The position numbers and the translations under genes are program-made. The notes under the pieces were generated by a model. The model was not told the origin of the DNA, did not search any database, and was given only the letters and a program-made list of their open reading frames with translations. A stretch of DNA of 64,000 nucleotides from Squalus acanthias. Taxonomy: Eukaryota. Location of the stretch: the NCBI GenBank assembly GCA_030390025.1, contig CM059432.1, positions 90,770,001 through 90,834,000 on the forward strand, read 5' to 3'. This document shows, one piece after another, positions 3,459-64,000 of this stretch; positions within the stretch are counted from its first letter, which is position 1, and the number at the start of each line of letters is the position of its first letter.

Positions 3459-3562
3459 AGAGTTCTGACGAAGGGTCATCGACCTGAAACGGTAACTCTG
3501 ATTCTCTCTCTACAGATGCTGCCTGACCTGCTGAGTATTTCCAGCATTTTCTGTTTTATTTT
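3459..3562 (+). mobile_element. Penelope-like element terminal (pLTR) fragment
   Basis: Near-identical to the 3' ends of the Penelope copies at 36580-36711 and 59890-60023. Confidence 0.85.
3461..3497 (+). ncRNA. Minimal hammerhead ribozyme motif (degenerate stem III)
   Basis: AGTT-CTGACGA-A-GGGTC ATC GACCT-GAAA-CGGT-AACT; the ACGT palindrome is mutated to ACGG. Confidence 0.6.
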
Positions 3563-15480: not shown

Positions 15481-15732
15481 ATCTAGTGAACCTATAGACC
15501 TCAACAAAAGTTCTCAAACCTTGTTGGTTGATATCCTTTTTCCTAATTGGAACAGTGGATGATGATATGCCTGTTCTTGATATTCTAAGGAGTCCACCAC
15601 AACCAGCAGATTAAAATTTTAGCTTTTTTAATATGTTAATTTTTTAATTGTCAAAACTAATTCCTGAACAACCCAGAATTTCCATCCCTAATATATAGTA
15701 TGGAGGATTGTGTTCCAAACAAACTAATCCAT

Positions 15733-16092
15733 TCTGAAATAAAAACAGAAAATACTGGAAATACTCAACAGGCCAGGCAGCATCTATAGAGAGAGTTAAC
15801 GTTTCAGGTCGATGATCCTTCGTCAGAACTGCTCGATGGCTTGATGTTTGGTAGTGGGGGAGATAGGAGGAGGTGTCAGAGAGTTGGTGTTCAGCTTCCG
15901 CTAGGTAGAGGTCGGTTTGCCAAACAACAACAGCGCCACCCTTGTTAGCAGGTTTAATGACAATGTTGGGGTTGGATCTGAGAGAATGGAGTGCTGCAAG
16001 TTCAGAGGGAGTTAGGTTGGAGTGAGTGAGGGGAGCAGTGAAATTGAGACAGCTGATATCACGCCGGCAGTTTACAATGAAAAGATCTAGAG
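15733..16092 (-). mobile_element. Internally deleted Penelope element (ORF N-terminal piece joined to the pLTR)
   Basis: NLTPSELAALHSLRSNPNIVIKPANKGGAVVV (KPADKG region of Penelope RT) directly followed by the pLTR. Confidence 0.85.
15794..15830 (-). ncRNA. Minimal hammerhead ribozyme motif
   Basis: Minus strand AGTT-CTGACGA-A-GGATC ATC GACCT-GAAA-CGTT-AACT; stem II has a mismatch. Confidence 0.65.
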
Positions 16093-17354
16093 AGGTTAAG
16101 TTGCTTTTGTAATCCATTCTGATCGCTTCTATGGTGATCAAAGGTTAATACTGTAAGTAGTTTCCTTAATTCATTGCACATTATTAGAAAAGTAACAATA
16201 TAGTTAAGAAACTCTTTTTCTTATAAGAAGGGAGAAAAAGAAAAATAGCTTTAATATCATGAGATAAGCAAACTGGTATAATTGCTGCATATAAAACAAG
16301 ATTGATTTTTCTCCAAATCTATGTGATATTGATTTAATAGATTATATATGTAAACACTTGAAGCATTCCATTTTACTCAAATTATATACATGCAAATTGC
16401 TATTAATGAGCTATAATACATTGTTAAAGCACGTTCCAGGGCCAGATCTACTAAATCATTTTATGCATATTAAAAAGCTGTTTGAGGAAAATGCAAACTA
16501 TATGAGCTATCAACTAAAAACCTGTAATGGAAATAATTGCACTATTTCAATCCCTACTATCTATAGTAGCAGTTAAAAGTTGTCAAAGAATGTGCAGCTG
16601 GGAAACTGGAAATTGTAATAATTTGCAGTATCGATTGTTTGAGACCGTGCAGCTGGGGCCCCTGGTGGAAAGGCAGAAATAGACACTTTATTGATTAAAT
16701 TTTACAGCCATACTTTCAAGACATCATTTTTACCTCTCATCTTTGTGCTACTGTGCCATGACAGTACTTTTCTTTGTTTCAAGTAACTCACTTCTTGTCT
16801 ACCCAAGGGGAAAGAGTACAGACCTATCTCCATTACATTTCCTTCAGTAACAGTCCTTTGAGACAATTGTTTCAGATATGCATACGCATGTTTCAGCTTT
16901 TCTTAAACAATTTGTTGTTATAAGAAGATTGTTTCAGAATTGACTTATTATTGTAACTTAAAAACAACTAAGTTTTTTTGTAACTTATTAATTGCATTGC
17001 TGCTCAAAAAGGCAAAATATGCCTAATTGATATTTAACACTTAACGATTTCATTAGTCAATATTCACTGAAAGCATATTTTAAAAAGAACAGACCTGGTG
17101 ATTTATTAACATTTACACCTGGATCTTCCTGCACAAAGTAATGTTGCCATTGATTTACCGCTGATTGCAGTATATTACCACTACCAATAATTCAACGCGT
17201 ATGGCAGTTACTATTGCTTTGCATTTTCCAAGGGGAAAGAGTACAGACCTGTAATAATCTGTTAATATTAAACCCAGTTTTAATAGAATAACATATGTTG
17301 ACAAAAATGACAATTGAGACAATTATTGGGAATAGATCTCATACGTCAAGTCAT

Positions 17355-22716: not shown

Positions 22717-24020
22717 CTATGCAAATCTGGCCATGATAAGTTCATCCCTTGCATCCCGGGCAGTCATGTGCTCGCGTACTGCCGCTGCTGCTGGTCGATA
22801 CACCGGTGCTCTGACCTCCTCCTGCTCCTCCTCCTCCTCCTCCAGATCCTCCCCCTCCTCAGCCTCCTCCTCCTCCTCATCTGAGGAGGGCTGGAACTGA
22901 GCCACTTGCTCATCAGGAAGCTGCAAGCCACGACGCTGTGCGATGTTGTGTTGTGTACAGCAGACCATGACCATTCTGGAGACCCTGTATGGTGTATACT
23001 ACAGGGCTCCACCTGATCGGTCAAGGCAACGGAAGCGCATCTTCAACAACCCAATGGTTTGCTCGATGATGGATCTGGTCAAAGTGTGGCTGGCGTTGTA
23101 GTGCTCTTCAGCCTCGTTAGCTGGCCTCCTGATCAGCGTCATTAGCCACTTCTTCAGGGGGTAGTCTTTGTCACCAAGGAGCCATCCGTTAAGTTGGTTT
23201 GGCGGATTGAAAAGTGGAGGAACACTACAGTGCCGCAGGATGAAAGAGTCATGGCAACTACCACAGAACTTGGCGCAAACATGCAAGAACTCCTTCTTGT
23301 GGTTACACACCAGCTGTATGCTGAGGGAGTGGAAGCCCTTTCGGTTGACAAAGATAGCTGGGTTGTGATGGGGTGCCCTAAGGGCCACATGTGTGCAGTC
23401 TATGACACTCTGCACCATTGGCATGCCTGCCATATATGCAAAGCCAACCGAACGGGCGGTTACACTTGCTTGATCTCTTGAGAACTGGATGTAATTGTGG
23501 GCCTTAGCAAAAAGGGCATCGGTAACCTGCATGATGCAACTGTGGCCGGCCGACTGGGAGATGCTGCTGATGATCCCTGGAAGGAGCCTGAGGCAAAGAA
23601 GTTGAGTGCGGTGGTGACTTTGACAGCCACTGGTAAGGGGTGTCCACCTGTTCCTCTGGGCACCAGGTCTTGCTGCAGCAGTCCGCAGATCACTCGGACA
23701 ACCTCTCGCGAAAGTCTCAGCCTCCTTTGGCACTGCTGCTCACTCATGTTGAGGTAGCTCATCCTTTGTCTGTAAACCCTCTGTCGGGGGTATCTCCTGC
23801 GGCGAGGTGCCTCGATGCGCTGGCGCCTTCTGCCCTGTGCAGCATCAGGTGGCTGAGCAGGAGGTTGGGGCTCCTGCTGCTGTTGCTGCTGAGCTGCCTG
23901 AGCAGGAGGTTGGGGCTTCTGCTGCTGTTGCTCCTGAGCTGCCTGGTTCTGCTGCTGCCGTGGATGCTCCTCATCCTCATCTGAGGTCCATGGAGAAAGA
24001 AAACGAATAGTTCCCATCAT
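22717..24020 (-). pseudogene. Harbinger (HARBI1-like) DDE transposase with one frameshift near 23570 and one stop near 23000
   Basis: [57 protein letters not shown], acidic C-terminus. Confidence 0.9.
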
Positions 24021-25394
24021 GCTTGCAGATGCCTCCGTTGGGGAAGCGCTAATTGCAAGCGGGGAGAGGGTCTTCCAAGGAGGTCCCACAGTTGATAGAT
24101 TCAAGCTGCAGTACCTCTGACTTCGGAAGGCCTTCTAAAAGTGCTCAAAGACCTTTTAAAGCAAAGTTCTGGCACCTGCAGGTAATCCTTGATGAAATAA
24201 ACGATGTATTGTTAGACCTGCAGCTGTGAGGAGATCACTCACTTGTCAACCCACCAGGTTTAGCTGGCATGGTATAGGAGGGTCGTGGAACACGTCAAAA
24301 TGCTCCAAAAATCACGAGGGCCTCTCAAAATAGGCTTAGAGAGGCCCTTAACAAGCATTTAATTATGTTAACTAGCGCTATGGCCAGCTGGAGGCGGGAC
24401 CGTTTCCCGACCTCCAAAACCGGCACCGGCAAAATCCCGCGGAGGCGGGTTGGAGGCGGGTTCCGAACCCGCCCTCATTGTTTCTGATTTTCCCGCCTTT
24501 CCTGCCTCCAAACCCGCCTCCTCCGACATCAGTAAATCGCCCCCTAGGTAAAAGGAAATTATATCAAAGTTTGCTGATGATGCCAAATTTGAGGAATGAC
24601 AAACTGAGGAAGAATACAAGAGATTTCAGGATATTGGAGACAGGTTAGCAGAGTGGGAAGATAGGTGGCAGATACATAATGTGAAGTATCACATTTTGGG
24701 AAATCAGCAGTGAAAGGAAGTGTACCATAAATCGTAAAGCTCTTAACAGTGTGGAAGGGCAATCTATGGTTGTAGATACATAAATCTTTAAAGTGCAGGG
24801 AGTGCAGGTTGAACAGGCTATAAAAAGGCAAATAGAATTCTGGGTTTTATGCATAGGCCCATTGAATATAAAGGCCAGGAGGTGATATTTAATTTGCGCA
24901 AGACATTGGTTAAGCCATAGTTGGAGTATTGTATGTAGCTCTGGGGCCCCCACTATAGGAAAGATATTAAAGCTATGCAATGAGTACAATGAAGATTCAC
25001 TAGAATTATACCAGGAAGGAAAATTATAGTTATAAGGAAAGGCTCTAAAATGAATTATTTTTCTCTGGAACAGAGAAGATTAAAGAGGGATCTTTTAGAA
25101 GGTTTCAAGATAAGTAGTGAACGATTGTTTTCATTGGTTGCAGATTCTCTAAAGATTATTATGAGGAAAAAAAGGGAGAGTTAGATATTTTTTCACACAA
25201 AGGTTATTAGAGTACAGGTGTTATTGAGGGCGAGATTATTAAAAGGGAAAAGTATTTAAAAAGGAAGGATATAAGGAAAGAACAGGATATTGAGATTAGA
25301 GTGGACAGCTCCTGTTGGAAAGGTATCACTGGCATAGGCATAATAGGTAAAGTGACTCCATTCTATGATTGTAAGACATATCAAACCTGCTTAG

Positions 25395-26848: not shown

Positions 26849-29382
26849 AACAACAACAACTTGTATTTATATTGCGCCTTTAACGTAGTAAAACATCCCA
26901 AGGCGCTTCACAGGAGTGTTATAGGACAAAATATTGACACCGAGTCACATAAAAAATTAGGGTAGATGACCAAAAGCTTGGTCAAAGAGGTAGGTTTTAA
27001 GGAGCGTCTTAAAGGAGGAAAGAGAGGGGGAGAGGTTCAGGGAAGGAGTTCCAGAGCTCAGGGCCTAGGCAGCTGAAGGCACGGCCACCGATAGTTGAGC
27101 GATTATAATCAGGGACCCTCAAGAGGGCAGAATTAGAGGAGCGCAGCTATCTCGGGGGGGGCGGGGGGTTGTGGGGCTGAAGGAGATTACAGAGATAGAA
27201 AGGGGCGAGGCCATGGAGGGAATTGAAAACAAGGATGAGAATTTTGAAATCGAGGCGCTGCTTAACCGGGAGCCAATGTAGGTCAGCGAACACAGGTGTG
27301 ATGGGCGAACGTGACTTGGTGCGAGTTAGGACACCGGCAGCCGAGTTTTGGATGACCTCAAGTTTACGCAGGGTAGAATGTGGGAGGCCAGCCAGGAGTG
27401 CGTTGGAACAGTCAAGTCTAGAGGTGACAAAGGCATGGATGAGGGTTTCAGCAGCGGATGAGCTGAGGCAAGGGCGATGTTACGGAGGGGGAAGAAGGCG
27501 GTCTTTGTTATGCTGCGGATTTGTGGTTGGAAGCTCATTTCAGGGTCAAATATGACACCAAGATTGCGAACAGTGTGGTTCAGCCTCAGACAGATGTTAG
27601 GGAGAGGGATGGAGTCAGTGGCTAGGGAATGGAGTTTGTGGCGGGGACCGAAAACAATGGCCCGTAATTTCCGATAGAAGGCATCCTACGTGCGGATGCC
27701 TCCTATGGGGAAAAAATCTATGCCCTTACCTGAGGGCTCCCGAGGTCCGGACTCTTCCGATCCTGGGCCTTTCCTGGTGCGCGCGTGCAAAGGCCCAGGT
27801 ATCCCAGGGGCGCGCGTGCAAAGGCCCAGGTATCCCAGGGGTGCAGGCGGTTCGCAAGCGTCCCTGGGATCACGTGGGCCAGGCGAGCCAATGGGAGAAG
27901 GGAATCCCCCTTATACTTTTGACAGGTAGACCTGTCAAAAGTATGAATGGGAATCGCTGAAAAAAGACACTACAACATTAAATAATTTTTTTTTTAAATC
28001 ACATTTTTAAAATGAGTTAAAATTACATTAAATTAAATATTTTAAACAAAAATGTAATTTTTTGAAAAAAATAATTAAAGTTTTTTACGGTGCTAAAATT
28101 AAACTTACGTTTTTTAAAAATATTTTTACATTATAAATGAGTGAAAAAATTTATGTTTTTACTTTTTTAAACTCTTATGTTGGTAAAAGCAGTCCTTACG
28201 CCTGCTTTTACCAGGCGTAAGATTTTTAAAGGATTTCAGCGGGCGGAGGTTCTGCAGAAAGCGGAACTCTCCACCCGCAGAGGTCCTTCTCCAGGGCAGG
28301 CATGCGATCTGTCAAGAGGATTCTTGACAGATCGGAAGTGCCGGTTTTCAGCTCGTACACACTCGTAGGCATCGGAAATTATGGGCTAATAGCTTCGGTT
28401 TTCCCAATATTACTCATCCAGAACTGTGTGTCGGACAAGCAGTCGGGACAATTTAGACACCGTGGAGGGGTCGAGAGATAAAGTAGTGAAGTAGAGCTGG
28501 CTGTCGTCAGCGTACATGTGGAAACTGACGCTGTGTATTTGGATGATGTCGCCAAGGGGCAACATGTAGATGAGAAACTGGAGGGGGCCAAGGAAAGATC
28601 CTTGGGGGACACCAGAGGTAATGATGCGGGAGCAGGAAGAGAAGCTGTTGCAGGTGATCCTCTGGTTACGATTAGATAGATAAGAATGGAACCAGGCGAG
28701 TGCAGTCCCACCCAGCTGGATGACGGTGGAGAGGCGTTGGAGAAGGATGGAGTGGTCAACCGTGTCAAAGGCTGCAGACAAGTCAAGAAGGACGAGGAGG
28801 GTTAGTTTACCTTTGTCACAGCCACAAAGGATGTCATTTGTGACTTTGATGAGAGCTGTTTTGGTACTGTGGCAAGGGCGGAAACCTGATTGGAGGGATT
28901 CAAACATGGAATTGCCGGAAAGATGGGCACGGATTTGGGAGGCAACAACATGTTCAAGGACTTTGGAGAGGAAAGGGAGGTTGGAGATGGGGTGGTAGTT
29001 TGCAAGGACGGAGGAATCAAGCTTTGGTTTTTTGAGGAGAGGGGTGATGATGGCAGATTTGAGGGAGAGGGGGACAGTACCTGAGGAGAGAAAACCATTA
29101 AAAATATCAGCTAACATGGGAGCCAGAAAAGGAAGTTGGGTGGTCAGCATTTTGGTGGGAATAGGGTCGAGGGAGCAGGAGGTGGGTCTCATGGACAAGA
29201 TTAGCGCAGAGAGGTCATGAGGGGAGATCGGAGAGAAACTGGAGAAAGATGTGAGTTCAGGGCTAGGACAGGGAGGAACCTTAGAGGAAGTTTGGCCCAG
29301 TGGGCTAGGGGAAGGAAGGGAAGTGGCAGAGGCAGCTGAACGGATGGTCTCAATCTTAGAGACAAAGAAGTCTATGAGCTCT
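26849..29382 (-). mobile_element. L2 LINE, 5'-truncated, split by a MITE
   Basis: ORF 28410-29198 (LDPIPT, PISNLPFLSK, QSGFR, DLSAAFDTVDH, GVPQGS, YADD); (TTG)n tail at 26849. Confidence 0.9.
27659..28387. mobile_element. MITE with GGCCC TIR and AWT target
   Basis: TIRs GGCCCGTAATTT / AAATTATGGGCT; TSD AAT; internal tandem duplication of about 31 bp at 27779-27841. Confidence 0.85.
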
Positions 29383-35196: not shown

Positions 35197-35398
35197 ATCA
35201 TAACAAGTTCCCCTCCCTCACCTCTTTTTCCGGTACATTGATGACTGTATCGGTGCCGTCTCCTGCTCTCGCCCTGAACTAGAACATTTCATTCACTATG
35301 CTTCCAATTTCCACCCTTCCCTCACCTTCACATGGTCCATCTCCGACTCTTCTCTTCCCTTCCTCGACTTCTCCATCTCCATCTCTGGGGATAGGTTA

Positions 35399-36304
35399 TT
35401 GACTAACATTCACTACAAGCCCACCGACTCCCACAGCTACCTGGACTACACTTCCTCCCACCCCGCCTCCTGTAAGGACTCTATTCCATTCTCCCAGTTT
35501 CTCCGTCTCCGCCGCATCTGCTCTGATGATGCCACCTTCCATACCAGTGCTTCCGACATGTCTTCCTTTTTCCTCAACCGAGGATTCCCCTCTACCGTGG
35601 TCGACACGGCCCTCGACCGTGTCCGTTCTATCTCCCGCACATCCGCCCTCACCCCTGCCCCTCCCTCCCGGAACCACGATAGGGTTCCCCTTGTCCTCAC
35701 CTTTCACCCCACCAGCCTCCACATTCAACGGATCATCCTCCGCCATTTCCGCCACCTCCAGCGTGATCCCACCACCAAACACATCTTCCCCTCACCTCCC
35801 CTTTCAGCATTCCGCAGGGACCGCTCCCTCCGCGACACCCTAGTCCACTCCTCTACCACCCCCAGCACCCCTTCCCCTTCGCCTGGCACCTTCCCGTGCA
35901 CGCGCAGGAGATGCAACACATGCCCTTATACCTCCCCTCTTCCCACTGTCCAGGGCCCCAAACACCCCTTCCAGGTGAAACAGCGATTTACTTGTACTTC
36001 CTGCAATTTAGTATACTGTATTCGCTGCTCACGATGTGGACTCCTCTACATTGGGGAGACCAAACGCAGATTGGGTGACCGCTTTGCGGAACACCTCCGT
36101 TCAGTCCGTAAGGGGGACCCCGAGCTCCCGGTGGCCTGTCACTTTAATTCACCGCTTCACTCCCACTCTGACCTCACCGTCCTCGGCCTAATACACTGTT
36201 CCACGGAAGCTCAGCGTAAGCTCGAGGAACAGCACCTCATCTTTCGTTTAGGCACGCTACAGCCCTCTGGACTCAATATCGAGTTCAACAATTTTAGATC
36301 ATAA
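35399..36304 (+). CDS. Penelope RT thumb, Cys linker and GIY-YIG endonuclease (open frame, partial)
   Basis: YKPTDSHSYL, SQFLRLRRICS, CTRRRCNTC, VYCIRCSRCGLLYIGETKRRLGDRFAEH, GLN. Confidence 0.85.
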   Translation: MTNIHYKPTDSHSYLDYTSSHPASCKDSIPFSQFLRLRRICSDDATFHTSASDMSSFFLNRGFPSTVVDTALDRVRSISRTSALTPAPPSRNHDRVPLVLTFHPTSLHIQRIILRHFRHLQRDPTTKHIFPSPPLSAFRRDRSLRDTLVHSSTTPSTPSPSPGTFPCTRRRCNTCPYTSPLPTVQGPKHPFQVKQRFTCTSCNLVYCIRCSRCGLLYIGETKRRLGDRFAEHLRSVRKGDPELPVACHFNSPLHSHSDLTVLGLIHCSTEAQRKLEEQHLIFRLGTLQPSGLNIEFNNFRS

Positions 36305-36580
36305 CCTCAGCTCCAATCACATTTATATTTTATTTTATCTACCCTTTTATTTGTCCCCCCCACCTTTTTTTTCCTCCTAGAAGCTGGCAGCTGTCCTTCA
36401 TTCTGCCAGTAGATTTCACACTTCATTCAGCCTTAATCTGTCACATTAACACCACCTCTAGCCTTGCATATCTCTTAATGTCTCTTAATGTCTCTTCATC
36501 TCCTCCTTTGTTCCTTTATCCCCTCCCCCTTTTCCCAGCTTTACCCTGGCCTTAAATCTATTTGATTTCCAGCTCTTCCC

Positions 36581-36617
36581 AGTTCTGATGAAAGGTCATC
36601 GACCTGAAACGTCAACT
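36581..36617 (+). ncRNA. Minimal hammerhead ribozyme motif (GUC site)
   Basis: AGTT-CTGATGA-A-AGGTC ATC GACCT-GAAA-CGTC-AACT. Confidence 0.75.
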
Positions 36618-36744
36618 CTCTTTCTCTCTCCACGGATGCTGCCTGGCCTGCTGAGTTTTTCCAGCGTTTTCTGTTGTTATTTCGGATTTCCAGCATCTGC
36701 AGTATTTTGCTATCATAACAAGTTCCCTCTTCAGTCAGGCCCCT

Positions 36745-38299: not shown

Positions 38300-40391
38300 T
38301 GCTGTTAAACCATACTGCAGACCATCGTGCCAAATGTGATATAGGTGATTTATTTAGTGCCAAATATGATAAATGCCTTCCATTCATTTCTCACCCGGCT
38401 GATCAACCCATAGTGCTTTTCTTCAAAGAAGGTTTTCTAACTCTACTACTCCTGTGAGGTGCTCCACAAATGGCCTAAGAAGAGCCAGTGGAAAGTCGCT
38501 GTTCATCATGTGGGGACCCTTGAGATGCTTATGGCCGGCGACTTCTGGGTGCTCGAGCCTGTGAGGGTCCGGCTGCAGGCTGCTACAACTCGGTTGACTT
38601 GCTAGCAGTATTGCAGGTATTGGTTGAGGGGGGATGTATGTGCAGGGGTGCTAACATCCTGAGAGAGGCCAGCATGTACTGCTCCCATTGCACCACTTCC
38701 ACTGATCTGCGCGAGAGCATATTGCATAAGGTAATCATCCCCTTCAAAGCCCCTGTCCTTTTGATCCACCAATCTCTCCATTGTGGAGCCCAGAGTCTGC
38801 ATGGCAGCTGTTTGAGCTTCCACCAGAGCTGGAAAGCATGCTAGTATGGTCTCCTGCCGTGAGGGCCCAGCTATCTTATTCCCACAGGTAACCACACTAT
38901 CCATGGTAGATTGCAGAGTGGTGATGTTATGCGCAATGACACCACAGAAGCTGGATGCGAACTTCTCCACACTTTCAGCCGTAGTAGTGAAACTTTTTGG
39001 CATGCCTTCCAATACCTTATAGAGCTTTTTATGTGAGGCCAGCAGTTTTCTTCTCCTGGCTGGGCCCTTGAAGTCCTCATCGCTGTCGTCCTCAGCAGAG
39101 CTAGGAGAGGGCCTCGCCTTCCAGTGAAGTCTCTCTTTGGCTATTCCTGCCACCAGTAGCTGCTGCTGCCCACTGGTGCTGGGTGTTTCACCATGTGCAG
39201 ACCCCTCTGCTCATTATCTAGCCAAAGCAGAGTGCCAATGTCTGAGCTGGTGCCTGGGAGGGGTAGAGCGCCTCAGGAAGATTGTCCTCCTCTGAGGTCT
39301 GTTCTTCTGCTGGAGCCTCTTGATGTTGAGAAGTCCTGCGAAGAAACAGAAAAGGGAGAAGAGTTAGGATGGGAGACAAAAGCTGTACATAATCAGGTGA
39401 CTGTGCTGAGAATGCATGCTTGCTGCATCTGAGCTGAGTTGAAATAAGTAATATACTGGCTCCCTTCTTGGGTACGCCACCAGTCTCTCCTTTCCCGATG
39501 CTCATGACCCTGCCTGGACCAGTGATGTCCAGGGCTTCCTGCTCTGCCTGTGTGAGGGTGATGATGTTGGAAACTCCTCCAACTGCCCTTTCCCTTGATA
39601 TGTCTTTAGGCGCGGTCTTGTCCTGTAGAAAGAGAGGGCATGGCTGTTGAGATGGTTAGCTGAAATGTGTGGGGCTTGTGCATATAGTGAATCTGTGGTG
39701 TGAAGAGGGGAAAGGAAGAGGTGTTTGTAATGAGCAAAAGAGGTGTTTTAGTTCTTGTGACTGTATGTTAAGTATGTGATAGAAGAGTGGTCATAGTTGA
39801 AAGTGGTTTTGAGATGGTGGGAGAGGAGTGTTGTGAGGTGCTGGTGAGAGAGGTGGAGAGATAAAGAGGTGTACTCATCCTTGCTACTCCTGTGAGGTCA
39901 TTAAACCTCTTTCTACATTGAACCCAGGTTCTGGGGTTGATGCTACTGACACTGACCCTATCAGCTACCTCTGTCCAGGCTTGCCTGACAGTGGCCTTGG
40001 GGATGCTCCAGCGGGTTCTGGGGAAGAGCACCTCCTTTCTGATCCTCATTTCTTCCACTGGGACTTCCAGGAAGGCATCAGGAAAGCAGAGGGCAGCCCT
40101 TTGACTCTGCAGGCAAAATGTTTTCCACAGTTGTTCACTGGAAAATGCAAGCAGAGGATGCAACCTCGCTTTAAGAGGTGCATCCTTGCATTAAGTACAG
40201 TCGGGAAATGCGGCAGAAATTGTGTAGGTCACGTGGGCAAGCAGCCCGATTCTGCAGGTAATCAGGTGGGTAGCCCATCCTTCAAACGTTAATGAGGCCC
40301 TGGAGTTAAAATGGCTCAGGTCTCACATCAACAATGTTATGGGGGCTTGTCAACCACCCGCACGATTCCCACCAAAGTTAAAATTGAGGCT
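38300..40391 (-). mobile_element. Harbinger derivative carrying a decayed three-exon Myb/SANT-like gene and no transposase
   Basis: TIR-like AAAATTGAGGCT at 40391; AWTEVADRVSVSSINPRTWVQCRKRFNDL; exon 2 acceptor near 39623; last exon ORF 38602-39153; left end unclear. Confidence 0.75.
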
Positions 40392-44530: not shown

Positions 44531-44694
44531 ATTAAATACATCTGCCATTTTTTAATCATCACACAATTGACAATCCTTTCCTCTCAGTGGTCCCACCTCA
44601 CCTTTAACGATTCTCTTTTTACTGATATACTTGATATAAAAACAGAAAATGCTGGAAATTCTCAGCAGGTCAGGCAGCATCTGTAGAGAAACAG

Positions 44695-44731
44695 AGTTAA
44701 CGTTTCAGGTCGATGACCCTTCGTCAGAACT
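44695..44731 (-). ncRNA. Minimal hammerhead ribozyme motif
   Basis: Minus strand AGTT-CTGACGA-A-GGGTC ATC GACCT-GAAA-CGTT-AACT. Confidence 0.72.
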
Positions 44732-46932
44732 GGAAAAAGTTGGAGATGTAACAGGTTTTTAAGCAAGTGTAGAGGCAGGGAGAGGGGGGAGGGGAGGAAA
44801 GAACAAAAGGGAAGGTCTGTGATACGATGGAAGGCAGGAGAGATTAAGAGACAAAAGGGATGATGGTACAAGGCAAAAGGAGATGGTAATGGGACAAGTT
44901 AAGAAACAAAAGATGACTCTAGATGAAGTGTAAATGGCAATGGCAGATTGATCGACAGCTGCCATGTGAGAGAGAGTAAAAAAAATAATGATGGGGCAGA
45001 GGTTATGGTCTGAAATTGTTGAATTCGATGTTGAGTCCAGAGGGCTGTAAAGTGCCTAATCGAAAGATGAGGTGCTGTTCCTCGAGCTTACGTTGAGCTT
45101 CATTGGAACAGTGTAAGAGGCCGAGGATGGAGAGGTCAGAGTGGGAGTGGAGCGGAAAATTAAAGTGACAGGCAACCAGAAGCTCGGGGTCACCCTTGCG
45201 GACTGAACGGAGGTGTTCCGCAATGCGGTCACCCAATCTGCGTTTTGTCTCCCCAATATAGAGGAGACTGCATCGTGAGCAGCGAATACAGTATACTAAA
45301 TTGCAAGAAGTACAAGTAAATCGCTGTTTCACCTGGAAGGAGTGTTTGGGGCCCTGGACAGTGGGAAGGAAGGAGGTAAAAGGGCAGGTGTTGCATCTCC
45401 TGCGCTTGCACAGGAAGGTGCCGGGGGAAGGGGTGTTGGGAGTGATAGAGGAGTGGACCAGGTTGTCGCGGAGGGAGCGGTCCCTTCGGAATGCTGAAAG
45501 GGGAGGTGAGGGGAAGATGTGTTTGGTGGTGGGGTCACGCTGGAGGTGGCGGAAATGGCGGAGGCTGATCCGCTGAATGTGGAGGCTGGTGGGGTGAAAG
45601 GTGAGGACAAGGGGAACCGTATCATGGTTCCGGGAGGGAGGGGAAGGGGTGAGAGCAGAAGTGCGGGAAATAGAACGGACACGGTCAACGGCCGTGTCAA
45701 CCACGGTAGAGGGGAATCCTCGGTTGAGGAAAAAGGAAGACATGTCGGAAGCACTAGTATGGAAGTGGCATCGCCAAAGCCGATGCGGCAGAGACGAAGA
45801 AACTGGGAGAATGGAATAGAGTCCTTACAGGAAGCGGGGTAGGAGGAAGTGTAGTCCAGGTAGCTGTGGGAGTCAGTGGGCTTATATTGAATGTTTGTCA
45901 ATAGCCTATCCCCAGAGATGGAGACAGAGAAGTCGAGGAAGGGAAGGGAAGAGTCGGAGATGGACCATGTGAAGGTGAGGGAAGGGTGGAAATTGTAAGA
46001 AAAGTGAATGAAATTTTCTAGTTCAGGGCAAGAGCAGGAAAAGGCACCAACACAGTCATCAATGTACCAGAAAAAGAGGTGATGGAGGGGACCCGAGTAG
46101 GACTGGAAAAAAGAACGTTCCACATATCCCACAAAAAGGCAGGCATAGCTAGGACCCATGCGGGTTCCCATAGCAACACCTTTAATATGGAGGAAGTGAG
46201 TGGAGTCATAGGAGAAGTTGTTCAATGTGAGAACAAGTTCAGCCAGGCGAAGGAGGATGGTGGTGGAAGGGGACTGGTTGGGCCTTTGTTCAAGGAAGAA
46301 GCGGAGCGCCCTCAGGCCATCCTGGTGGGGAATGGAGGTGTAGAGGATTGGACGTCCATAGTGAAAAGGAGACGATTGGGGCCAGGAAACTGGAAACTGT
46401 TAAAGTGGCAGAGGGCGTTGGAAGAGTCGTGGATGTAGGTGGGAAGAGACTGGACAAGGGGAGAAAAAATAGATTCGAGATAGGAAGAGATAAGTTCCGT
46501 GGGGCAAGAACAGGCTGAAACGATGGTTCTACCAGGGCAGTCTTGTTTGTGGATCTTGGGAAGGAGGTAGAAGCGGGCTGTGCGGGGTTGGGGAACTATG
46601 AGGTTGGCGGCCGTGGAGGGAGGATCTCCAGAGGAGATGAGGTCAGTGACAGTCTTGGAAACGGTGGCTTGATGTTCGGTAGTGGGGTCATAGTCCAGGG
46701 GGAGGTAGGAGGAGGTGTCGGAGAGTTGGCGTTCAGCCTCCGCTAGGTAGAGGTCGGTTCGCCAAACAACAACAGCGCCACCCTTGTCAGCAGATTTAAT
46801 GACAATGTTGGGGTTGGATCTGAGAGAATGCCTTCCATCCTATCATAGACCTTCCCTTTTGTTCTTTCCTCCCCTCCCCCTCTCCCTGCCCCTACAAATG
46901 CTTAAAAACCTGTTACATCTCCAGCTTTTTCC

Positions 46933-46969
46933 AGTTCTGACGAAGGGTCATCGACCTGAAACGTTAACT
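46933..46969 (+). ncRNA. Minimal hammerhead ribozyme motif
   Basis: AGTT-CTGACGA-A-GGGTC ATC GACCT-GAAA-CGTT-AACT. Confidence 0.72.
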
Positions 46970-47057
46970 CTGTTTCTCTCTCTACAGATGCTGCCTGACC
47001 TGCTGAGTATTTCCAGCATTTTCTGTTTTTATTCCTAAAACTACTACTAGTTTCCTG

Positions 47058-47440: not shown

Positions 47441-48187
47441 GGTGCAGAAATTCCGATCCCTACGGATGTGTACACGCTGTGTACTCACCCGTAGGGACAT
47501 CGGAAATGCCGGTTTCAGGCATGCACTGCGCATGCGCTGGAAACCGGCATTTCCGTTCTCTCTTGACAGAACCTCCGGCTGCCCTGGAGAAGAGCCTCTT
47601 CGGGTGGAGAGTTCCGTATTTTGGAGACCCTCCGCCCGCAGAAAACACTTACAATTCTTGCGCCTGGTAAAAGCAGACATAAGGCCTGCTTTTACCAGGA
47701 TAAGAGTTGAAAAAAGTTTTTAAAAAAATGTTTCCACTGATTTATCATTTAAAAATACTTTAAAGAAAGGTAAGTTTATTTTTAGCCCCGTTAAAAACTT
47801 TAATTATTTTTTTCAAAAAATAAAATTTTTGTTTAAAATACTTAATTTATTGTAATTTAAAGTCATTTTAAAAATGTGATTTTTTAAAAAAAGTGTAAAG
47901 TTTTACTATGTTTTGGGGGTGATCTCTATTCATATATTTGACAGGTCTTCCTGTCAAATGTATGAAGGGAGATTCCCTTCTCTGATTGGCTCCCCATGGC
48001 CCACGTGATCCCAGGGACGCTGCGAATCGCCTGCACCTCTGGGATACGTGGGTCCCTGCGCACCGGCAGTTTGGAGAGGCCCAGCAGCGGAACTCTGCGC
48101 CACCCGGGAGCCTTCCGGTCTTGGTGCAGATTTTTCCAGATCGCAGCCCTCCGCCCGCGGGAGGCCTGTAATCGGAATTTCTGGGCC
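47441..48187. mobile_element. MITE with GGCCC TIR and AWT target (inverted relative to the other three copies)
   Basis: TIRs GGTGCAGAAATT / AATTTCTGGGCC; TSD ATT. Confidence 0.85.
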
Positions 48188-51576: not shown

Positions 51577-53375
51577 GGCCAGAATTTTACCGGCACTCAG
51601 AGTGCGGGTTTGGAGGCGAGTCCGCTGTCAAAATCACAAAGATTGACAGCAGGTCGGTATCCCGCTGTAAACCCGCCTCCTTGTCAGTTTCCCAAATGTC
51701 GGGTCTGTCATCCCTGAACAGACCCGACACCAAGCGGCGGGTCAGCCAATTTAGATACTTAAAAGGTTGTTAAAAGGTAGTTGAGCACCATTTTCCCATG
51801 TACTTGCCATTTTACCAGGTTTTTAATGAGGTTCCCGGAGAGCGGGTATCACGCCAGGTAAGTAGGTCGGATGTTGTGTCAGAATGGAATGATTTACTAA
51901 CCTGACAGCTGGAAATATTCAATGAAAGCTCCCATTTCATAGGTCTTCACTTTCCAAGGTTCGAAGCTGTTGTTTACTGCATTTGGAAGACAGATTGAGC
52001 TTTATGCAGGTTGCAAGTGATTGGAGCAAACTCTCTATCCAGTGTCACCTCATTGGAACAACCTCTCTCACCATTGACAGATTGCTTCTGTCATCTCAAC
52101 CTCACCTGCCATCTATTCCATCAGCATCGGTGCCCTTGAAAAAATCTCACCTTGGTCCTCAGAATCCCAGCACTGATCAGCCCCAACACCAGCAGCACCA
52201 GGCACACCAGCAGCACCAACATTCACACCAAACTTCTCCGCAATCAACTGATGCTGCACAGGACACAGGGCATCATCACCCGTGCACATTGCTGCCCGTG
52301 ACTCCAGCGATGGCCTCACCATGTCCAGATTGACTTCACTTAACACTGTACACCCTGGCTGCCACATGATGCACCAGGTTGGCACCACCCCATACCAACA
52401 CCATAAAGCATCCCTACAATGCCCAAACCATTCCTTTCACACTCATCACCATTGGGGTGGGGTGGGGGGGGGGGGCGGAGGTGGACGTTATATCTCACTA
52501 TCCAGCTGAACTCACTAAGACACTTCCAAAGGTGCACACAAATCTGTCCAAGAAGGCAAAGTGTTGAAAATAAAGATTTCAATGCTTGACAACACATTAA
52601 CAGAAACTTTACATGAACATTGGCTAAAGCACACAAGTGCCTACCCTTGTGTGTTATTAGTTTGAATGATTGGACAAGGATGAGGGTGAGTGTGAGGGTG
52701 GCTAGTGAGATGGGGAAGTGATAACGTAGACAGAGAGGGATGGGTGGAGGTGTAAGGTAAGTTGGTGTGAGTAAGGATGTGCAAGAGTAGGGTAGGGAAG
52801 GCAGAGTGATGGGGATGTGATGAGTGGCACAGCAGGATGAGATTGAGTGTGGCTTTGCAGTAACGTTTCGTAATCTACTGTGATCACATTGAAAGGTTTG
52901 CGCCACTGCACCCAGGTCATCCTGACAACAGCCCCGCTTGTGCACTCCTGTGCAATGTGCAACCAGGCTGCGTTGGTGTGCTGGGGAGGTGTCTTCCGCC
53001 CATGGGAAGGGAAGAGAACCTCCCTGTGTGCTGTGACTCCCTCCATAAGCATATGGGAGAGCCTGGGTGCAGCCGTGCCCCTTTGTGCAGTGCTTGTCAG
53101 TGTTTGCAGCACCTCAATGCTGCAGAACACTGACAGCACAACTGACAAAATCAATGTGTCCATGGTCCCTTTAAGGAAACCGGCTGATGACGCGTCATCA
53201 AATGACGTCATCAGACCCGCTTCCTATTAATTGGCCGGGAACCTCGCAGGGCGGGCTTAAGAAGCCCCATCAATGGAAAATCATGTTGGAGGCTGGGATC
53301 GAGACAGATGCGGGGTCCCCACACACCACGGACGTCGCCCGCCACGGACCCGCTGAGGTTGGAAAAATCCAGCCC
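51577..53375. mobile_element. Non-autonomous Harbinger with a transposase 5' remnant (+) and a convergent Myb exon 1 remnant (-)
   Basis: TIRs GGCCAGAATTTT / AAAATCCAGCCC; TSD ATA; AAPRLS...MEGVTAHREVLFP...W...MTWVQWRKPFN. Confidence 0.85.
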
Positions 53376-56770: not shown

Positions 56771-58581
56771 GTAAATTATAGTTTTATATTATAGTTAAGT
56801 GAAGAGGAAAATATATTACTGAAGTTATAGGCCTAGAAATGGGTTTGCCCTGGAAAACGAATGCAGGGGATCACGATGCGCGATTAAGAGGACTGCAGGC
56901 AGTATGCAAACTTCGTGCTACCTGCTTATTTCCATGATTGTGGCATTCAGCCCAGCGCTGAACACGCTGCTGAGTGGCTGAATGCTCAGCAAGGGGCCCA
57001 AGTTCGTGCGAGGCTTGCTCCGCTTAAAGCTAGCCTGCACTACTTAAAGGCAGTCTGCACCTCTTAAAGGGGAGATGCATTCTACCTGCAGCAGATCATT
57101 GAACTGGCTAGGGAAGACAGTGAAAAACAATTAATAATGGCACAACAGAGGAGAGAGCGTGCACCAAGGTTCTCGGATGCAACACAGGGAGGCCTTGGTG
57201 CAGGAGGTGGATCGGAGGATAGAGGCGCTGTTGCCACAGGAGGCCCTCCAGGCAATAGTGCAAAGTACAATGGGAGCGGATAGCCAATGTGGTGAATGCT
57301 AGCAGTGTACCCCTGAGGACCTGGACACAGTGCAGGAAGAAGTTTAATGACCTCACATGAGTGGTCAAGCTCAGTGAATTCATCTTCAAATGCCATATTC
57401 CACCATCTGCACCACTAGCCTCACACAATGCTCAATGCACCACACCCCATCACTCACCAACAATCTCTACCAAACACAAATCACACCTCACAGTCATAGC
57501 TTCACTAAACCCTTATACACTTACCATCGCTGCAAGCCTCACACCCACATCTCACAGCTCGCACACACTGCAAGTTATTCAACCATGACAGGCACATCAC
57601 CACACTCACTGACACACTTCCCTTTCTCTTGCAGGAAAAGGTGGCTCATAACCGGCTCAAGCAGCACCTAACCGGCAGGGGACAGGCTGGCCATTCTTCG
57701 GAGGGGCACCTTCCATCTCTTACTGACTATCACATCGTTGCTTGGCCACAGTGCAAAAATAAAACCCACACAAAATAAACATTCCAAACCAAATTTATAA
57801 ATTAAACCATGCCATATTGCATACCAAATGAAACTAATTACCCTTGTGCATTCCCTTAGTACCTGTCTTCTGTGTGCCTTTGCCTGTCCTTGTGCTCCTA
57901 CACAGTGCTACCCCAGTGGCTGCAGTATGGCTGGTGGAAGGCTGCTGACTTTCAGTGGAGGAGACTGCAGATGGCCATGCAGGACGACCTCAAGTAGCTC
58001 TAGGCCTAGTAGGCCCGGCTTTGGACTGCACCACCTCGGTATGGATGGCAGCAGTCTGGGCTGGCTGGCTGACAGGCAACAGCAAGGGCACTGGCAGAGT
58101 GGCAGTGGTGGGAGGACGAATGCTGTCATCCTGAGAGAGGACAGCAGATTCATGCTCCACAGAGTCACTGTCACTCCCCCAGGACGGCACCTCAGCAATC
58201 CTAGTAATCTGTTGGAGGACAGTTTGCTGGACTGATGTGACACCCTGCAAGCCACTTTCAACACTGGTAACCCCAGCCATGATGGCAGCAGTCTGCTTGC
58301 ATTGCAGCAAGCTAAGCTTGCATTACTTCAGTCTGAGCTTCCACTGCATCACTTGGGTGGCTTCTGCTTGTGCTGCAATGGAAGCTGAGACATCAGCCAT
58401 CAGACACTACATGATGGTTTGGTCCACAAGTGCGTTAATGGATTTGACCACGCCTTCCACGCAGGAAAGGATGAGCTCCAGGTTCTGCGCAAAGCCCTGT
58501 GCAACATTGGTGCTGGACTCCTCCATGCTCATGACATTACACTCAGGCTTTCTGGCAGGCCTGCCAATGCATCAAGCATTT

Positions 58582-60023
58582 GAACTAGAAAATTTCATTC
58601 ACTTTGCTTCCAATTTCCACCCTTCCCTCACCTTCACATGGTCCATCTCCGACTCTTCCCTTCCCTTCCTCGACTTCTCCGTCTCCATCTCTGGGGATAG
58701 GTTATTGACAAACATTCACTACAAGCCCACTGACTCCCACAGCTACCTGGACTACACTTCCTCCCACCCCGCTTCCTGGAAGGACTCTATTCCATTCTTC
58801 CAGTTTCTCCATCTCCGCCGCATCTGCTCTGACGATGCCACCTTCCATACCAGTGCTTCCGACATGTCTTCTTTTTTCCTCAACCGAGGATTCCCCTCTA
58901 CTGTGGTTGACACGGCCCTTGACCGTGTCCGTTCTATCTCCCGCACTTCTGCTCTCACCGCTGCCCCTCCCTCCCGGAACCACGATAGAGTTCCCCTTGT
59001 CCTCACCTTTCACCCCACCAGCCTCCACATTCAACAGATCATCCTCCGCCATTTCCGCCACCTCCAGCGTGATCCCACCACCAAACACATCTTCCCCTCA
59101 CCTCCCCTTTCAGCATTCTGAAGGAACCGCTCCCTCCACGACACCCTGGTCCACTCCTCTATCACACCCAACACCCCTTCCCCTTCGCCCGGCACCTTAC
59201 CGTGCAAGCGCAGGAGATGCAACACATGCCCTTATACCTCCCCCCTTCCCACTGTCCAGGGCCCCAAACACCCCTTCCAGGTGAAACAGCGATTTACTTG
59301 TACTTCTTGCAATTTAGTATACTGTATTCGCTGCTCACGATGTGGTCTCCTCTATATTGGGGAGACCAAACGCAGATTGGGTGACTGCTTTGTGGAACAC
59401 CTCCGTTCAGTCCGTAAGGGGGACCCCGAGCTTCTGGTCGCCTGTCACTTTAATTCACCGCTCCACTCCCACTCAGACCTCACCGTCCTCGGCCTCTTGC
59501 AGTGTTCCACTGAAGCTCAACGTAAGCTCGAGGAACAGCACCTCATCTTTCGATTAGGCACTTTACAGCCTCCTGGACTCAACATAGAGTTCAACAATTT
59601 CAGATCATAACCTCGGCCCCTATCATATATATTTTTTTTCCACACTTTTTTTTCTTCTCTCCCACATGGCAGCTGTCTTTCATTCTGTCAGTGCAATTTA
59701 CACTTCACCTAGAGCCGTCTTTTGTTTCTTAACCTGTCCCATTACCATCTCCTTTTGCCTTGTATATCTCTTAATGTCTCTTAACCTCTCCTGCCTCCTA
59801 TCCTATCACAGACCTTCCCTTTTGTTCTTTCATCCCCTTTCCCAGCTCCCACACTTGCTTAAAAATCTGTTCCATTTCCTGCTTTTTTCCAGTTCTGACG
59901 AAAGGTCATCGACCTGAAACGTTAACTCTGTTTCTCTCTTCATAGATGCTGCCTGACCCGCTGAGTACCTCCAGCATTTTCTGTTTTTATTTCAGATTTC
60001 CAGCATCTGCAGTATTTTCTTTT
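58582..60023 (+). mobile_element. Penelope-like element (Neptune-type), 5'-truncated, with premature stop
   Basis: Homologous to 35213-36711; 14-bp TSD TGCATCAAGCATTT (58568-58581 / 60024-60037). Confidence 0.92.
59891..59927 (+). ncRNA. Minimal hammerhead ribozyme motif
   Basis: AGTT-CTGACGA-A-AGGTC ATC GACCT-GAAA-CGTT-AACT. Confidence 0.72.
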
Positions 60024-62251
60024 TGCATCAAGCATTTCATTGTGCATACCCATCAGCCTTCTTCTGTTGGCTGCCCCATCAAAGTCCTCATCTGAGTTCT
60101 GTGCAGTAGAATCCGTGTGCGACCTCGCCCTCCAGAGAGCTGGCACCTGCGCTACCCTTTCCCCTGACCTGGTTGCAGCCCACTCGTGCCCGGTGACTCA
60201 CCACGTGCAGACCCCGCCCCTATGCTATCCTCTAATCTATGCGCATTACCAGTGTCTGAGCTGCTATCTGCGAGTGTGAGATGGAGTGATGGTGTTTCTT
60301 CTTCATCATCACTCTCCTCTTCCTCTTCCACCACTGTGTTCCCAGGTTGGAGTTTTTGGGTATCAGAAAGAAAAAAGGCACAAGTATAGGTTTGTGGTGA
60401 GGGGAGTGGGGGGGGGGGGGGAAGCAAAAGGTGCATGCTTACACATCTGCAACTTATAAATCAGAAGAGATTGTGGGTTGAAGGGAAAGTAGGATGTGAG
60501 AAGGAGGATTAGGTATAAGCTTGCATCATATTCACCGGCTCAGCCCCACCACTGGCCATGGCCTCAGTCACGGCCACTCCAATAATAGCGAGCACCGTCC
60601 CCTCGATCGGGGTAAGGTTTGCTGCTGCTGCCTACGGTTGTGTGCCACCTTGTCCTGTAAGAGAGAGGGAAGTGTATCAGTGAGTGTGATGCAATCCGTT
60701 TGGGTGATGTGGCTGTCATGGTTGAATAACTGGCGGTGTGTGCAAGCTGTGAGATGTGGGTGTGAGGCTTGCAGCAGTGGTAAGTGTGTGAGGCTGAGGT
60801 GGAGCATAGGAATGTGAGGTATGAGTCGTGATTGATAGAGATTGTTGGTAGATGAGTAATGGGGGTGTGGTGAACTGAGCAGTGTGATGCTAGTGGTGCA
60901 GTTGGTGTGCTATGGCATTTGAAGATGCATTCACTGACCTTGACCACTCGTGTGATGTCCTTAAACTTCTTTTGGCACTGTATCCAGGTCCTCGGGGCAA
61001 CAATGCTGGCATTGACCTCCACCGCTATCTGCTCCCACTGCCTTCGTAGTGTCTGCCTGGAGGGCTTCCTGGCCCCCTGTGGATACAGGACCTCTCCCTC
61101 CTTTCCACATCCTGCACTAAGGCCTCCAGTGCTGCGTCGGAGAGCCTTGGAGCCCTCTCTTTGGTCTGTGTTTCCCAGGTGATACTCCCTTCTGCAATGA
61201 CTTCCAGCACCTGCTCTCATCAAACTGCCTCTCCCCTTTAAGTGGTGCAGGCTGGCTTTAAGAAGTGCTGGCTAGCTTTATTGGTGCTAGCCTTGCATGA
61301 ACTTGGGCCCACTGCTGAGCATGCAGCCACTCAGCAGCACGTTTAGTGCTGGGCTGCACGCTGCACTCATGTAAATTAGCAGGCAGCACGAAGTTTGCGT
61401 GCTGCCTGCATCGGAACAATCGGGCGTGGGTTGATAGCGTATCACGATCACTGTGCCTGTTTTCAGACCTTATCCAATTTCTAGACCTGTGCTTTTAAGA
61501 AATGTTCCCCCTGAGCAGTCATCTGCCATTTATGAAACATCATTCTGGGGGGTGTCAAAAGTTTTTCCCTCCTCTTGTCATCAGCAGCAGATCCTCTTTA
61601 TTGATTCCTACACCAGAAAATTCCAATTGCCGTTTTTCAGTTTTCAGTTTATTATAGTACAATTGAAACTCGCCTGCACATTTTTGATTTGTAAAAACTT
61701 AAAAATACTTTTTGAGGTTTATGCTTGTAGCTTTTAGTTTGTAAAATTCTAAACTATTTGTACCACTGCCATTTTGACTTCAGTCTTGCCTCAAACAACC
61801 ACCTGTTTCTGGCTGGCCTGCCAGCCTCTTTCAACTCTGGACTTAACTTTTCCTATTATGTGCCACAGATTCTTTCCAACACAAGGTCCCATGACACATA
61901 TCATCATTCTGTTGTTGCATGACTTTTTAATCGAAGATCTTGACACAGCGGTCTTATTTACAAAATGTTGAAGCTTGAATCAACTTGGTGAAAAAGATTG
62001 AGGGATACAGTTCAGCAAAGAAGCAGTCTTCCACTCAAATGTTAGATGGAGAGTGGAAAGTGTTGGCAAGTTGATTTTCTTAAGGATGCACCAGCTGAGC
62101 TATGTTCAATATCGATTTGCATGGCCAAAGAGAAGGCACTGCTTAGCCTGCACAACCTCTGCAAACATCAGTCACAATCAGCCAATCTGATCAAGTAGTT
62201 CCACATGACAGGTAACAGTGATATTTTTATCTTTTGTTTCAATTCTCCAAG

Positions 62252-62425
62252 GAGGAAAATGAGAGACAGGGGGCTGACAAAAAGGGGAAGAGCGCCCATT
62301 ACAGGAGTTTTCTCAGGCCTCAATGGAAGCAAAGTAGTCAGTCAGCACACGTCTCATTTGATGAGTATCGTCACAAGATTGCTTCTCAGCATGGGGTTCA
62401 GCCACAGTCAAATCCTGGACAATAG
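62252..62425 (+). CDS. Possible terminal exon of the host gene (EENERQGADKKGKSAH...NPGQ*)
   Basis: Pyrimidine tract ending in ccaAG, phase-0 open frame to a TAG, non-repeat context; weak support. Confidence 0.3.
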   Translation, partial: EENERQGADKKGKSAHYRSFLRPQWKQSSQSAHVSFDEYRHKIASQHGVQPQSNPGQ

Positions 62426-63292
62426 ACATATGTACCAGCCATATATTTGCAGAGCTTCAATTACTAAACCCTATCTGGAAAATTGATTTCAGGAAGGGTC
62501 CTGTTCAGAAAACCACCCACTGAGTCACTAGTTGTTTTCAAGGTGAAGACAAAATATAGCAGGTCCCTATTTCAGAAAAGCTCCAGTTTCTCTTGAGAAG
62601 GAATCTAAGCAGCTGGGCATAAGAATTATAGAATCGTTACAGCACAGTAGAAGGCCATTCGTCCCATCGAGCCTGTGCCGGCTCTCTGCAAGGGCACTTC
62701 AGCTAGTCCCAATCCCCCGTCCTTTCTCCGTACCCCTGCAAATTCTTTTCCTTCAGGTACTTATCTAATTCCCTTTTGAAAGCCACGATTGAATCTTCCT
62801 CCACCACCCTTTCAGGCAGTGCATTCCAGATCATAACCACTCGCTGCGTAAAGAAGTTTTTCCTCATGTCGCCTTTGGATCTTCTGCCAATCACCTTAAA
62901 TCTGTGTCCTCTAGTTCTCGACCCTTCCGCCAATAGCAACAGTTTCTCTCTATCTACTCTGTCTAGATCCCTCATGATTTTGAACACCTCTATCAAATCT
63001 CCTCTCAATCTTTTCTGCTCTAAGAACAACCCCAGCCTCTCCAATCTATCCACGTAACGGAAGTCCCTCATCCCTGGAACCATTCTTGTAAATCTTTTCT
63101 GCACCCTCTCTAAAGCCTTCACACACTTCCTAAAGTGCGGTGCCCAGAATTGGACACAATACTCCAGTTGTGGCCGAACCAGTGTTTTATAACGGTTCAT
63201 CATAACTTCCTTGCTTTTGTACTCTATGCCTCTATTTATAAAATTGAGAGGTCGCACAACACCAGGTTATAGTCCAACAGTTTTATTTGAAA

Positions 63293-63330
63293 TCACAAGC
63301 TTTCGGAGCTATCGCTCCTTCCTCAGGTGA
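63293..63330 (-). ncRNA. Minimal hammerhead ribozyme motif (left arm)
   Basis: Exact reverse complement of 63343-63380. Confidence 0.72.
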
Positions 63331-63342
63331 AGTAAATTTACT

Positions 63343-63380
63343 TCACCTGAGGAAGGAGCGATAGCTCCGAAAGCTTGTGA
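63343..63380 (+). ncRNA. Minimal hammerhead ribozyme motif (right arm)
   Basis: TCAC-CTGAGGA-A-GGAGC GATA GCTCC-GAAA-GCTT-GTGA. Confidence 0.72.
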
Positions 63381-64000
63381 TTTCAAATAAAACTGTTGGA
63401 CTATAACCTGGTGTTGTGCGACCTCTCAATTTTGTCCACCCCAGTCCAACACCGGCATCTCCGCATCATGACCTCTATTTATAAAGCCCAGGATCCCATA
63501 TGCTTTTCTAACCGCTTTCTCAACCAGTCCCGCCACCTTCAATGATTTATGCACATATACCCCCAGGTCTCTCTGTTCATGCACCCCCTTTAGTTTATAT
63601 TGCCTCTCCTCGTTCTTCCTACCAAAATGTATCACTTCACACTTTTCTGCGTTAAACTTCACCTGCCACACGTCCGCCCATTCCACCAGCCTGTCTATGT
63701 CCTCTTGAAGTCTATCACTATCCTCCTCACTGTTCACTATACTTCCAAGTTTTGTGTCATCCGCAAATTTTGAAATAGTGCCCTGTACACCTAAGTCCAA
63801 ATCATTAACATATAGACCAAGAAAAGCAGTGGTCTTAGTACCGACCCCTAGGGAACACCACTGTCTACCTTCCTCCAGTCTGAAAAACAACCGTTCACCA
63901 CTACTCTCCGTTTCCTGTCACTTAGCCAATTTCGTATCCATGCTGCCACTGTCCCTTTTATTCCTTGGGCTTCAACTTTGCTGGCAAGACTATTATGCGG

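Follow-up and report, generated by a model that had tools for sequence, protein, structure and literature searches.

A general trait of Penelope-like elements (PLEs) is an adjacent, inverted and 5'-truncated copy, together with a tail of 30-40 bp on one end (PMC8557442; PMC8969392). The head-to-head junctions of PLEs carry palindromes, and their duplications are 8-10 bp long (PMC3846280). PAc is the Poseidon element of Anolis carolinensis. Its purified protein cuts the two strands and extends each of them; two start sites bound the tail, and the protein was modelled as a dimer (PMC11167929). The minimal hammerhead ribozymes of PLEs require a partner or a protein for cleavage (PMC4209133; PMC11167929), and opposite-strand pairs of motifs separated by 100-700 bp have been noted (PMC4209133). 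The steps that produce the inverted copies and the tails are still unresolved (PMC3846280; PMC8557442; PMC11167929). Spacer-less palindromes are generally prone to breakage (PMC7999016). A title and abstract search, with most subscription papers and Repbase outside its scope, found no report on wholly palindromic PLE stubs or on this shark-type family, and the part of PMC12910113 consulted contained nothing on inverted structures.

In this study, we analyzed a 64,000-nt stretch of Squalus acanthias DNA, hereafter called the window. Positions 63240-63433 form a perfect palindrome of 194 bp with 0 mismatches. Its arms, 63240-63336 and 63337-63433, are 97 nt each and 100% complementary, with no spacer, as the original prediction had stated. 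Thirty dinucleotide-matched simulated windows and positions 1-63200 of the window were used as a chance control; the longest loop-free arm was 10 nt over the 30 simulated windows and 9 nt in 1-63200. A 14-bp direct repeat, CCTCTATTTATAAA, is located at 63229-63242 and 63472-63485, and the insert proper (63243-63471) is 229 bp long. The first 3 bases of the palindrome are the last 3 A of the left duplication; hence, the left arm brings only 94 bp of new DNA. The features are listed below.

62638..64000, minus strand: host LINE with its RT region split at the duplication; the left boundary is approximate and the element runs past the window end
63229..63242, plus strand: left target-site duplication, 14 bp, its final 3 A overlapping the palindrome
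63243..63336, minus strand: inverted, 5'-truncated, tail-less copy of a probable Penelope-type terminus, 94 bp (97 bp including the shared AAA)
63293..63330, minus strand: minimal type I hammerhead motif of the left arm, the mirror of 63343-63380
63334..63339, no strand: head-to-head junction AAA/TTT, loop-free
63337..63471, plus strand: second copy of this terminus, 5'-truncated and tailed, 135 bp
63343..63380, plus strand: minimal type I hammerhead motif of the right arm, assigned from motif and pairing
63343-46/63377-80, plus strand: stem I of the right arm, 4 bp
63347-53, plus strand: hammerhead core of the right arm, with the extra A at 63354
63355-59/63364-68, plus strand: stem II of the right arm, 5 bp, closed by G-C
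63369-72, plus strand: GAAA box of the right arm, with the palindromic 15.2-16.2 at 63373-74
63376, plus strand: predicted cut after U17
63394..63451, plus strand: 9-bp stem (63394-63402 with 63443-63451) linking the tail with the segment downstream of the hammerhead, with the tail-less end inside it
63434..63471, plus strand: tail, right arm only, 38 bp (41 bp counted from 63431), ending ATG-A
63472..63485, plus strand: right target-site duplication, 14 bp

Read from left to right, the unit consists of a duplication, an inverted short copy, the junction, a short copy with an extension, and a duplication, and is therefore asymmetric. The extension of the right arm, 38-41 nt up to 63471, had been left uninterpreted in the original prediction. 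Both hammerheads face outward from the palindrome centre. From the junction (63334..63339) it is 10 nt downstream to core position C3 and 40 nt to the predicted cleavage site. Since both copies start 40 nt upstream of the predicted cut, the palindrome centre is not the cut site. The 3 A that end the left duplication match UUU of the tail-less end of the element, possibly as a priming microhomology. The stem enclosing the tail-less end was no more stable than shuffled sequences (fold z -0.5, weak).

The host LINE, which we take to be of CR1 type, matched Pfam RVT_1 with an E-value of 4.4e-5, under the curated cut-off. After removal of the insert and one duplication, an ungapped match of 157/207 to a paralogous LINE at 10329-10535 spanned the junction, and a minus-strand frame was open across the site. 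Excision thus restores LINE continuity, and the predicted 229-bp insertion with a 14-bp duplication inside a LINE holds. For comparison with other copies, 24 runs were listed, and contigs from 4 of them (organism A with two samples, B and C with one each) were aligned to 62300-64000 at 90% likeness. In each of the four runs, 210-296 contigs diverge at 63242 and then run on as LINE sequence. Joints skipping ~243 bases at the insertion site were seen in X4, X5, X6 and X7 and were rejected as empty alleles of the locus, because LINE paralogues yield the same joint. In the search for a host gene by Pfam, 5 of the 437 low-repeat ORFs of at least 38 aa were matched, all five by transposon domains; short exons could escape this search. 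The host intron and the Dicer or ADAR role raised in the original prediction thus found no support. The locus is a dead insertion within an older LINE, without sign of host function.

Several other repeats were observed in the window. An uninterrupted LINE frame of 815 aa, presumably also of CR1 type, is present at 5148-7595 on the plus strand. DDE_Tnp_4 transposase and Myb/SANT domains were found at 23002-24134, 39771-40190 and 52705-53223, a combination that we assume to be typical of Harbinger-type transposons. Hairpins of 12-18 bp at 4238-4277, 4667-4719, 27762-27832, 27913-27944, 28305-28334 and 47663-47699 lie within or next to a repeat family, possibly a non-autonomous DNA transposon, that has copies near 4319, 17809, 27986 and 47560.

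Each palindrome arm carries, in order, CUGANGA, one extra A, a G-C-closed stem II of 5 bp, GAAA, a two-base palindrome, and UU. The CUGANGA and GAAA boxes, the extra base 9/10.1, G10.1-C11.1 and the palindromic 15.2-16.2, which are listed for PLE hammerheads in PMC4209133, are all present. The two motifs are only 20 bp apart. The window holds six further hammerhead motifs in a separate PLE family, here called family 1; the terminus in the palindrome is called family 2. Relative to the six family-1 motifs, 6-8 of the 10 pairs are changed on both sides and the core boxes are unchanged in this two-family comparison; a single pair is disrupted, in one family-1 copy. Pairs were counted by motif position; the automatic two-family alignment slipped register after loop II. 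The comparison agrees with the original proposal that the parts and architecture are shared with the other pseudo-LTR hammerheads of the window, and that the wholly different stems support the fold. Rfam hammerhead models gave no match at E<=1 in the window or at E<=10 in 63330-63480, and the six family-1 motifs were likewise unmatched by these models. Rfam matches of the miRNA/snoRNA type were far under their cut-offs and were dismissed as chance. A loose end in X7 proved to be a variant differing at position 7 and in loop II, both of which are free positions. U at hammerhead position 17 is the weakest base for cleavage. It is found in family 2 (63376) and in 5 of the 6 family-1 motifs (3465, 15826, 36585, 44727, 46937 and 59895).

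According to the computed fold, RNA of the whole insert forms a hairpin of 95 bp with a 4-nt loop; the perfect 97-bp hairpin proposed earlier was not obtained. The computed pair probability of stem II is ~3e-16 in the whole-insert transcript of either strand, compared with 0.99 in a lone arm. Two back-to-back hammerheads had been proposed. Both motifs are present, but each strand has one sense and one antisense hammerhead and not two usable ones. Because each strand has a single sense motif, which depends on a partner or a protein for cleavage and is sequestered in the hairpin, the ribozymes are probably passengers here, i.e., pseudo-LTR passengers that, on the modelled fold, would be unable to fold in a read-through transcript. 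A non-LTR retrozyme was ruled out as the identity of the insert by the head-to-head layout, the single sense motif per strand, and the sequestration in the hairpin.

The family-1 units of the window were used as a control. Family 1 has coding fragments, with a GIY-YIG match that narrowly missed the cut-off (E=2e-4). Duplications of 16, 14 and 13 bp were found in three of the five family-1 units examined; in the other two, the head-to-head unit included, no target duplication was found. Some family-1 copies end in a tail of ~30 nt, and others lack it. In the unit at 44632-47033 on the minus strand, an inverted terminus is joined head to head near 46829. Its arms (44636-44836 and 46829-47032) are 94% alike over 205 bp, and the tail is absent at both ends. 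The 63243-63471 insert is a minimal form of this layout. A stem of 7-8 bp occurs in family 1 at the position matching the 9-bp stem of family 2, with different letters (z -2.4 and -0.9, weak). The units at 35197-36727 and 58568-60037 are 5'-truncated, tailed family-1 copies with duplications of 16 bp and 14 bp, respectively, and the former contains a 366-aa frame of the RT end and GIY-YIG. An internally deleted unit with a 13-bp duplication is located at 15725-16122 and a solo terminus at 3461-3564; in both, the terminus piece starts at hammerhead stem I. A pyrimidine-rich run with CAG after it contains or adjoins the inner end in family 2 (63420-63471) and in family 1 (59975-60000) alike; from its letters, this arrangement resembles a 3' splice site. 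The family-2 tail is closed by the only ATG of the arm, which may be a start codon.

The depth of the arm is about the same order as that of the host LINE, so the family-2 terminus is a major repeat. In the two samples of A, the depth at 63313 (loop II) was ~757,000 and 647,000; B reached 17 and C 282, against a single-copy depth of 8-16. Summed depth was not used as a copy number; a crude conversion gave ~4,000 to 350,000 in the two runs of organism A. The unique flank (62300-62650) is common to B and C and 3-4% diverged, with 14 and 12 differences in 351 bases. The contigs of B and C stop a few bases inside the host LINE, and there is a weak hint that this LINE predates the split from B and C. 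The family-2 subfamily is specific to A and nearly absent from its relatives B and C; hence, by this indirect dating, the insertion postdates their split. Of the earlier description as very young, the relative youth stands, from the near absence of the subfamily in two relatives; arm identity alone, with 0 differences in 94 bp, permits an arm divergence of up to 3.1%. No second copy of the family-2 terminus was found elsewhere in the window. The exact arm pattern had 0 matches in viral and metagenome contigs, and the exact tail pattern had 0 matches in metagenome contigs and prokaryote genomes.

Among the 15 joints listed of 669, nine are inside the palindrome, each leading from a point in the left arm to a point in the right arm, at nine different places. 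These joints rest on short contigs (shorter side 21-26 letters, likeness 90), and counting in X4 was incomplete. We read the nine as head-to-head junctions of other copies, whose centres vary. Seven of the nine are asymmetric, with 1-4 letters fitting both sides, and the remaining two are symmetric and sit on native hairpins. Joint 63309>63364, found in X4, X5 and X6, has its centre at hammerhead stem II and leaves 3-4 letters between its two sides, and joint 63288>63385 is on the near-palindrome 63381-63388. Joint 63299>63423 has a tailed arm that is shorter than the tail-less one. By a rough depth-bin arithmetic, the central 22 bases account for at most ~9% of the arm depth in X4 and for nothing in X5. 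No contig among the 32 pieces listed (348,229 more) spans the centre 63336/63337. The mapping of inversion points across copies, which had been suggested as a check, revealed other centres among the joints listed, which favours formation at the time of insertion. Deletions in the middle of a unit that had already inserted are another possible source of differing centres.

We consider the palindrome to be two PLE ends joined head to head, in a dead insertion made by a two-primer route, and assign this reading a probability of about 0.55. The family-2 terminus itself is very probably a PLE. The structural features of PLE insertions found here are an inverted 5'-truncated copy, a one-sided tail, a duplication, a hammerhead, and dispersed, variably truncated copies. 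No coding sequence linked to the terminus was found in the window or in the viral, metagenome and prokaryote collections. For the proposal of a young fold-back product of a second Penelope family, the head-to-head arrangement and the hammerhead of the same architecture stand, and the coding partner is putative. Granted that identity, we infer the following steps with somewhat more belief than disbelief. An autonomous PLE protein encoded elsewhere, with reverse transcriptase and GIY-YIG nuclease, would cut the LINE strands 14 bp apart, and each free 3' end would prime reverse transcription on PLE RNA. A start at the outer site would give the tailed arm, and a start at the inner site, which is U-rich and where target and RNA match over 3 bases, would give the tail-less arm. 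Both cDNAs would halt ~10 nt upstream of the hammerhead core and join via the short self-complementary end AAATTT to form the loop-free palindrome; gap-filling repair would then produce the 14-bp duplication. Two-primer joining accounts at once for the duplication, the loop-free centre, and the presence of the tail on one arm only. We propose it because of the PAc results, in which both strands were cut and extended from two start sites by a protein modelled as a dimer (PMC11167929). The geometry of the insertion matches that of the published PLE unit; only the exact symmetry and the extreme shortness of the locus are unusual.

The palindrome may instead have formed by snap-back, a possibility that we regard as the main rival, though a doubtful one. 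A single cDNA primed at the tailed end would fold on a short native hairpin, the reverse transcriptase would copy its own cDNA, and a nuclease would finally resolve the intermediate at the tail boundary. The identity of the two arms fits this route, as do the two symmetric joints on native hairpins (63309>63364 at stem II; 63288>63385). Self-priming was argued from junction palindromes in PMC3846280, the tail was attributed to nuclease resolution in PMC8557442, and yeast mutants undergo snap-back duplications driven by 5-9 bp inverted repeats (PMC7999016). However, ~10 bp of native palindrome would be required for a loop-free centre, joint 63299>63423 has its shorter arm on the tailed side, and both strands are extended in vitro (PMC11167929). 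The joint centred on stem II with a loop of 3-4 nt is the product expected of snap-back, but annealing of two cDNAs at that hairpin would yield it as well, and the two routes are not distinguished by these data. Tentatively, the mirror arm of PLE insertions could be made by cDNA snap-back at hairpins of the element itself, hammerhead stem II included. If this is true, the ribozyme helix doubles as a DNA self-priming hairpin, and the A-specific burst of thousands of young copies is a natural junction library on the formation of inverted pseudo-LTRs.

If the 229-bp palindromic unit were a small non-autonomous family with a fixed centre, the other junctions would be decay products or sister families. 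Some junctions do recur, up to ~20-38x single-copy depth; later central deletions could vary the centres, spacer-less palindromes being prone to breakage (PMC7999016), and non-autonomous PLE derivatives are known (PMC8557442; bioRxiv 10.64898/2026.07.22.740005). This reading is nevertheless improbable. The depth arithmetic leaves little for the centre 63336/63337, recurrence would be expected at microhomology sites among thousands of copies, an RNA of a 95-bp hairpin with a sequestered hammerhead is a poor template, and the known non-LTR retrozymes are head-to-tail tandems (bioRxiv 10.64898/2026.07.22.740005). The tiny non-autonomous ribozyme retroelement of the original prediction is not supported, as the ribozyme fold is abolished in the palindrome, a tandem pair is absent, and the centres vary. 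It is more improbable still that the palindrome arose after insertion by break repair in or beside a single inserted copy. Breaks at short inverted repeats can yield palindromic duplications (PMC7999016), but the mirror arm ends at the inner end of the element with at most 3 target bases, and the whole unit lies between intact 14-bp duplications, with the LINE collinear on both sides. An assembly or library fold-back artefact is the least credible explanation. Fold-back chimeras look like mismatch-free, loop-free palindromes, as this one does, and its centre is the one spanned by none of the 32 contig pieces listed. Against this, an artefact would mirror the flank too and would leave the 14-bp duplication, the collinear LINE, and the tail on one side only unexplained; family-2 head-to-head junctions were also found in independent runs X4, X5 and X6, from samples of three studies.

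The PLEs of Adineta vaga are among the known systems closest to the locus. Pen2a_Av, Pen2 and Pen3a also have a head-to-head inverted, 5'-truncated copy with a junction palindrome (PMC3846280; scheme in PMC8557442), and the A. vaga units and the general scheme share with this locus a tail of 30-40 bp on one end and a duplication around the unit (PMC3846280; PMC8557442). In contrast, the copies here are only 94-135 bp long and without an ORF, and the junction is exactly symmetric, with a palindrome that equals the whole arms; the palindromes in A. vaga are 18-38 bp (PMC3846280). The duplication is 14 bp here and 8-10 bp in A. vaga (PMC3846280). PAc resembles the locus in the hammerhead near the element end, the AT-rich target, the two alternative 3' ends bounding a tail, and the predicted stem-loop around the inner end (PMC11167929). 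The PAc ORF starts at stem II, with start sites 111-118 nt into the ORF (PMC11167929), whereas the only ATG of the arm here is at its very end. With the pseudo-LTR hammerheads of metazoan PLEs, the motif shares the extra base 9/10.1, G10.1-C11.1, the palindromic 15.2-16.2, the 4-bp helix I and the loop-less helix III (PMC4209133); the cleavage site here is a predicted one. Its stem II is 5 bp, compared with 7-8 bp in the Schistosoma families, and the 20-bp spacing of the motifs differs from the 100-700 bp of the opposite-strand pairs (PMC4209133). Non-LTR retrozymes are likewise non-coding and PLE-derived and carry a type I hammerhead; however, they are head-to-tail tandems with at least two hammerheads on the same strand, whereas here the copies are joined head to head and each strand has a single sense motif (bioRxiv 10.64898/2026.07.22.740005). 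Such insertions also add spacer-less palindromes to the genome, which may be fragile by analogy with the class known to be breakage-prone (PMC7999016). A single locus is of little weight, and its value is that of a clean specimen. The young and very abundant subfamily offers many junctions, and a junction census could separate two-primer joining from snap-back computationally. The layout has already been described for PLEs, and the locus is an ordinary, though unusually clean, example of it.
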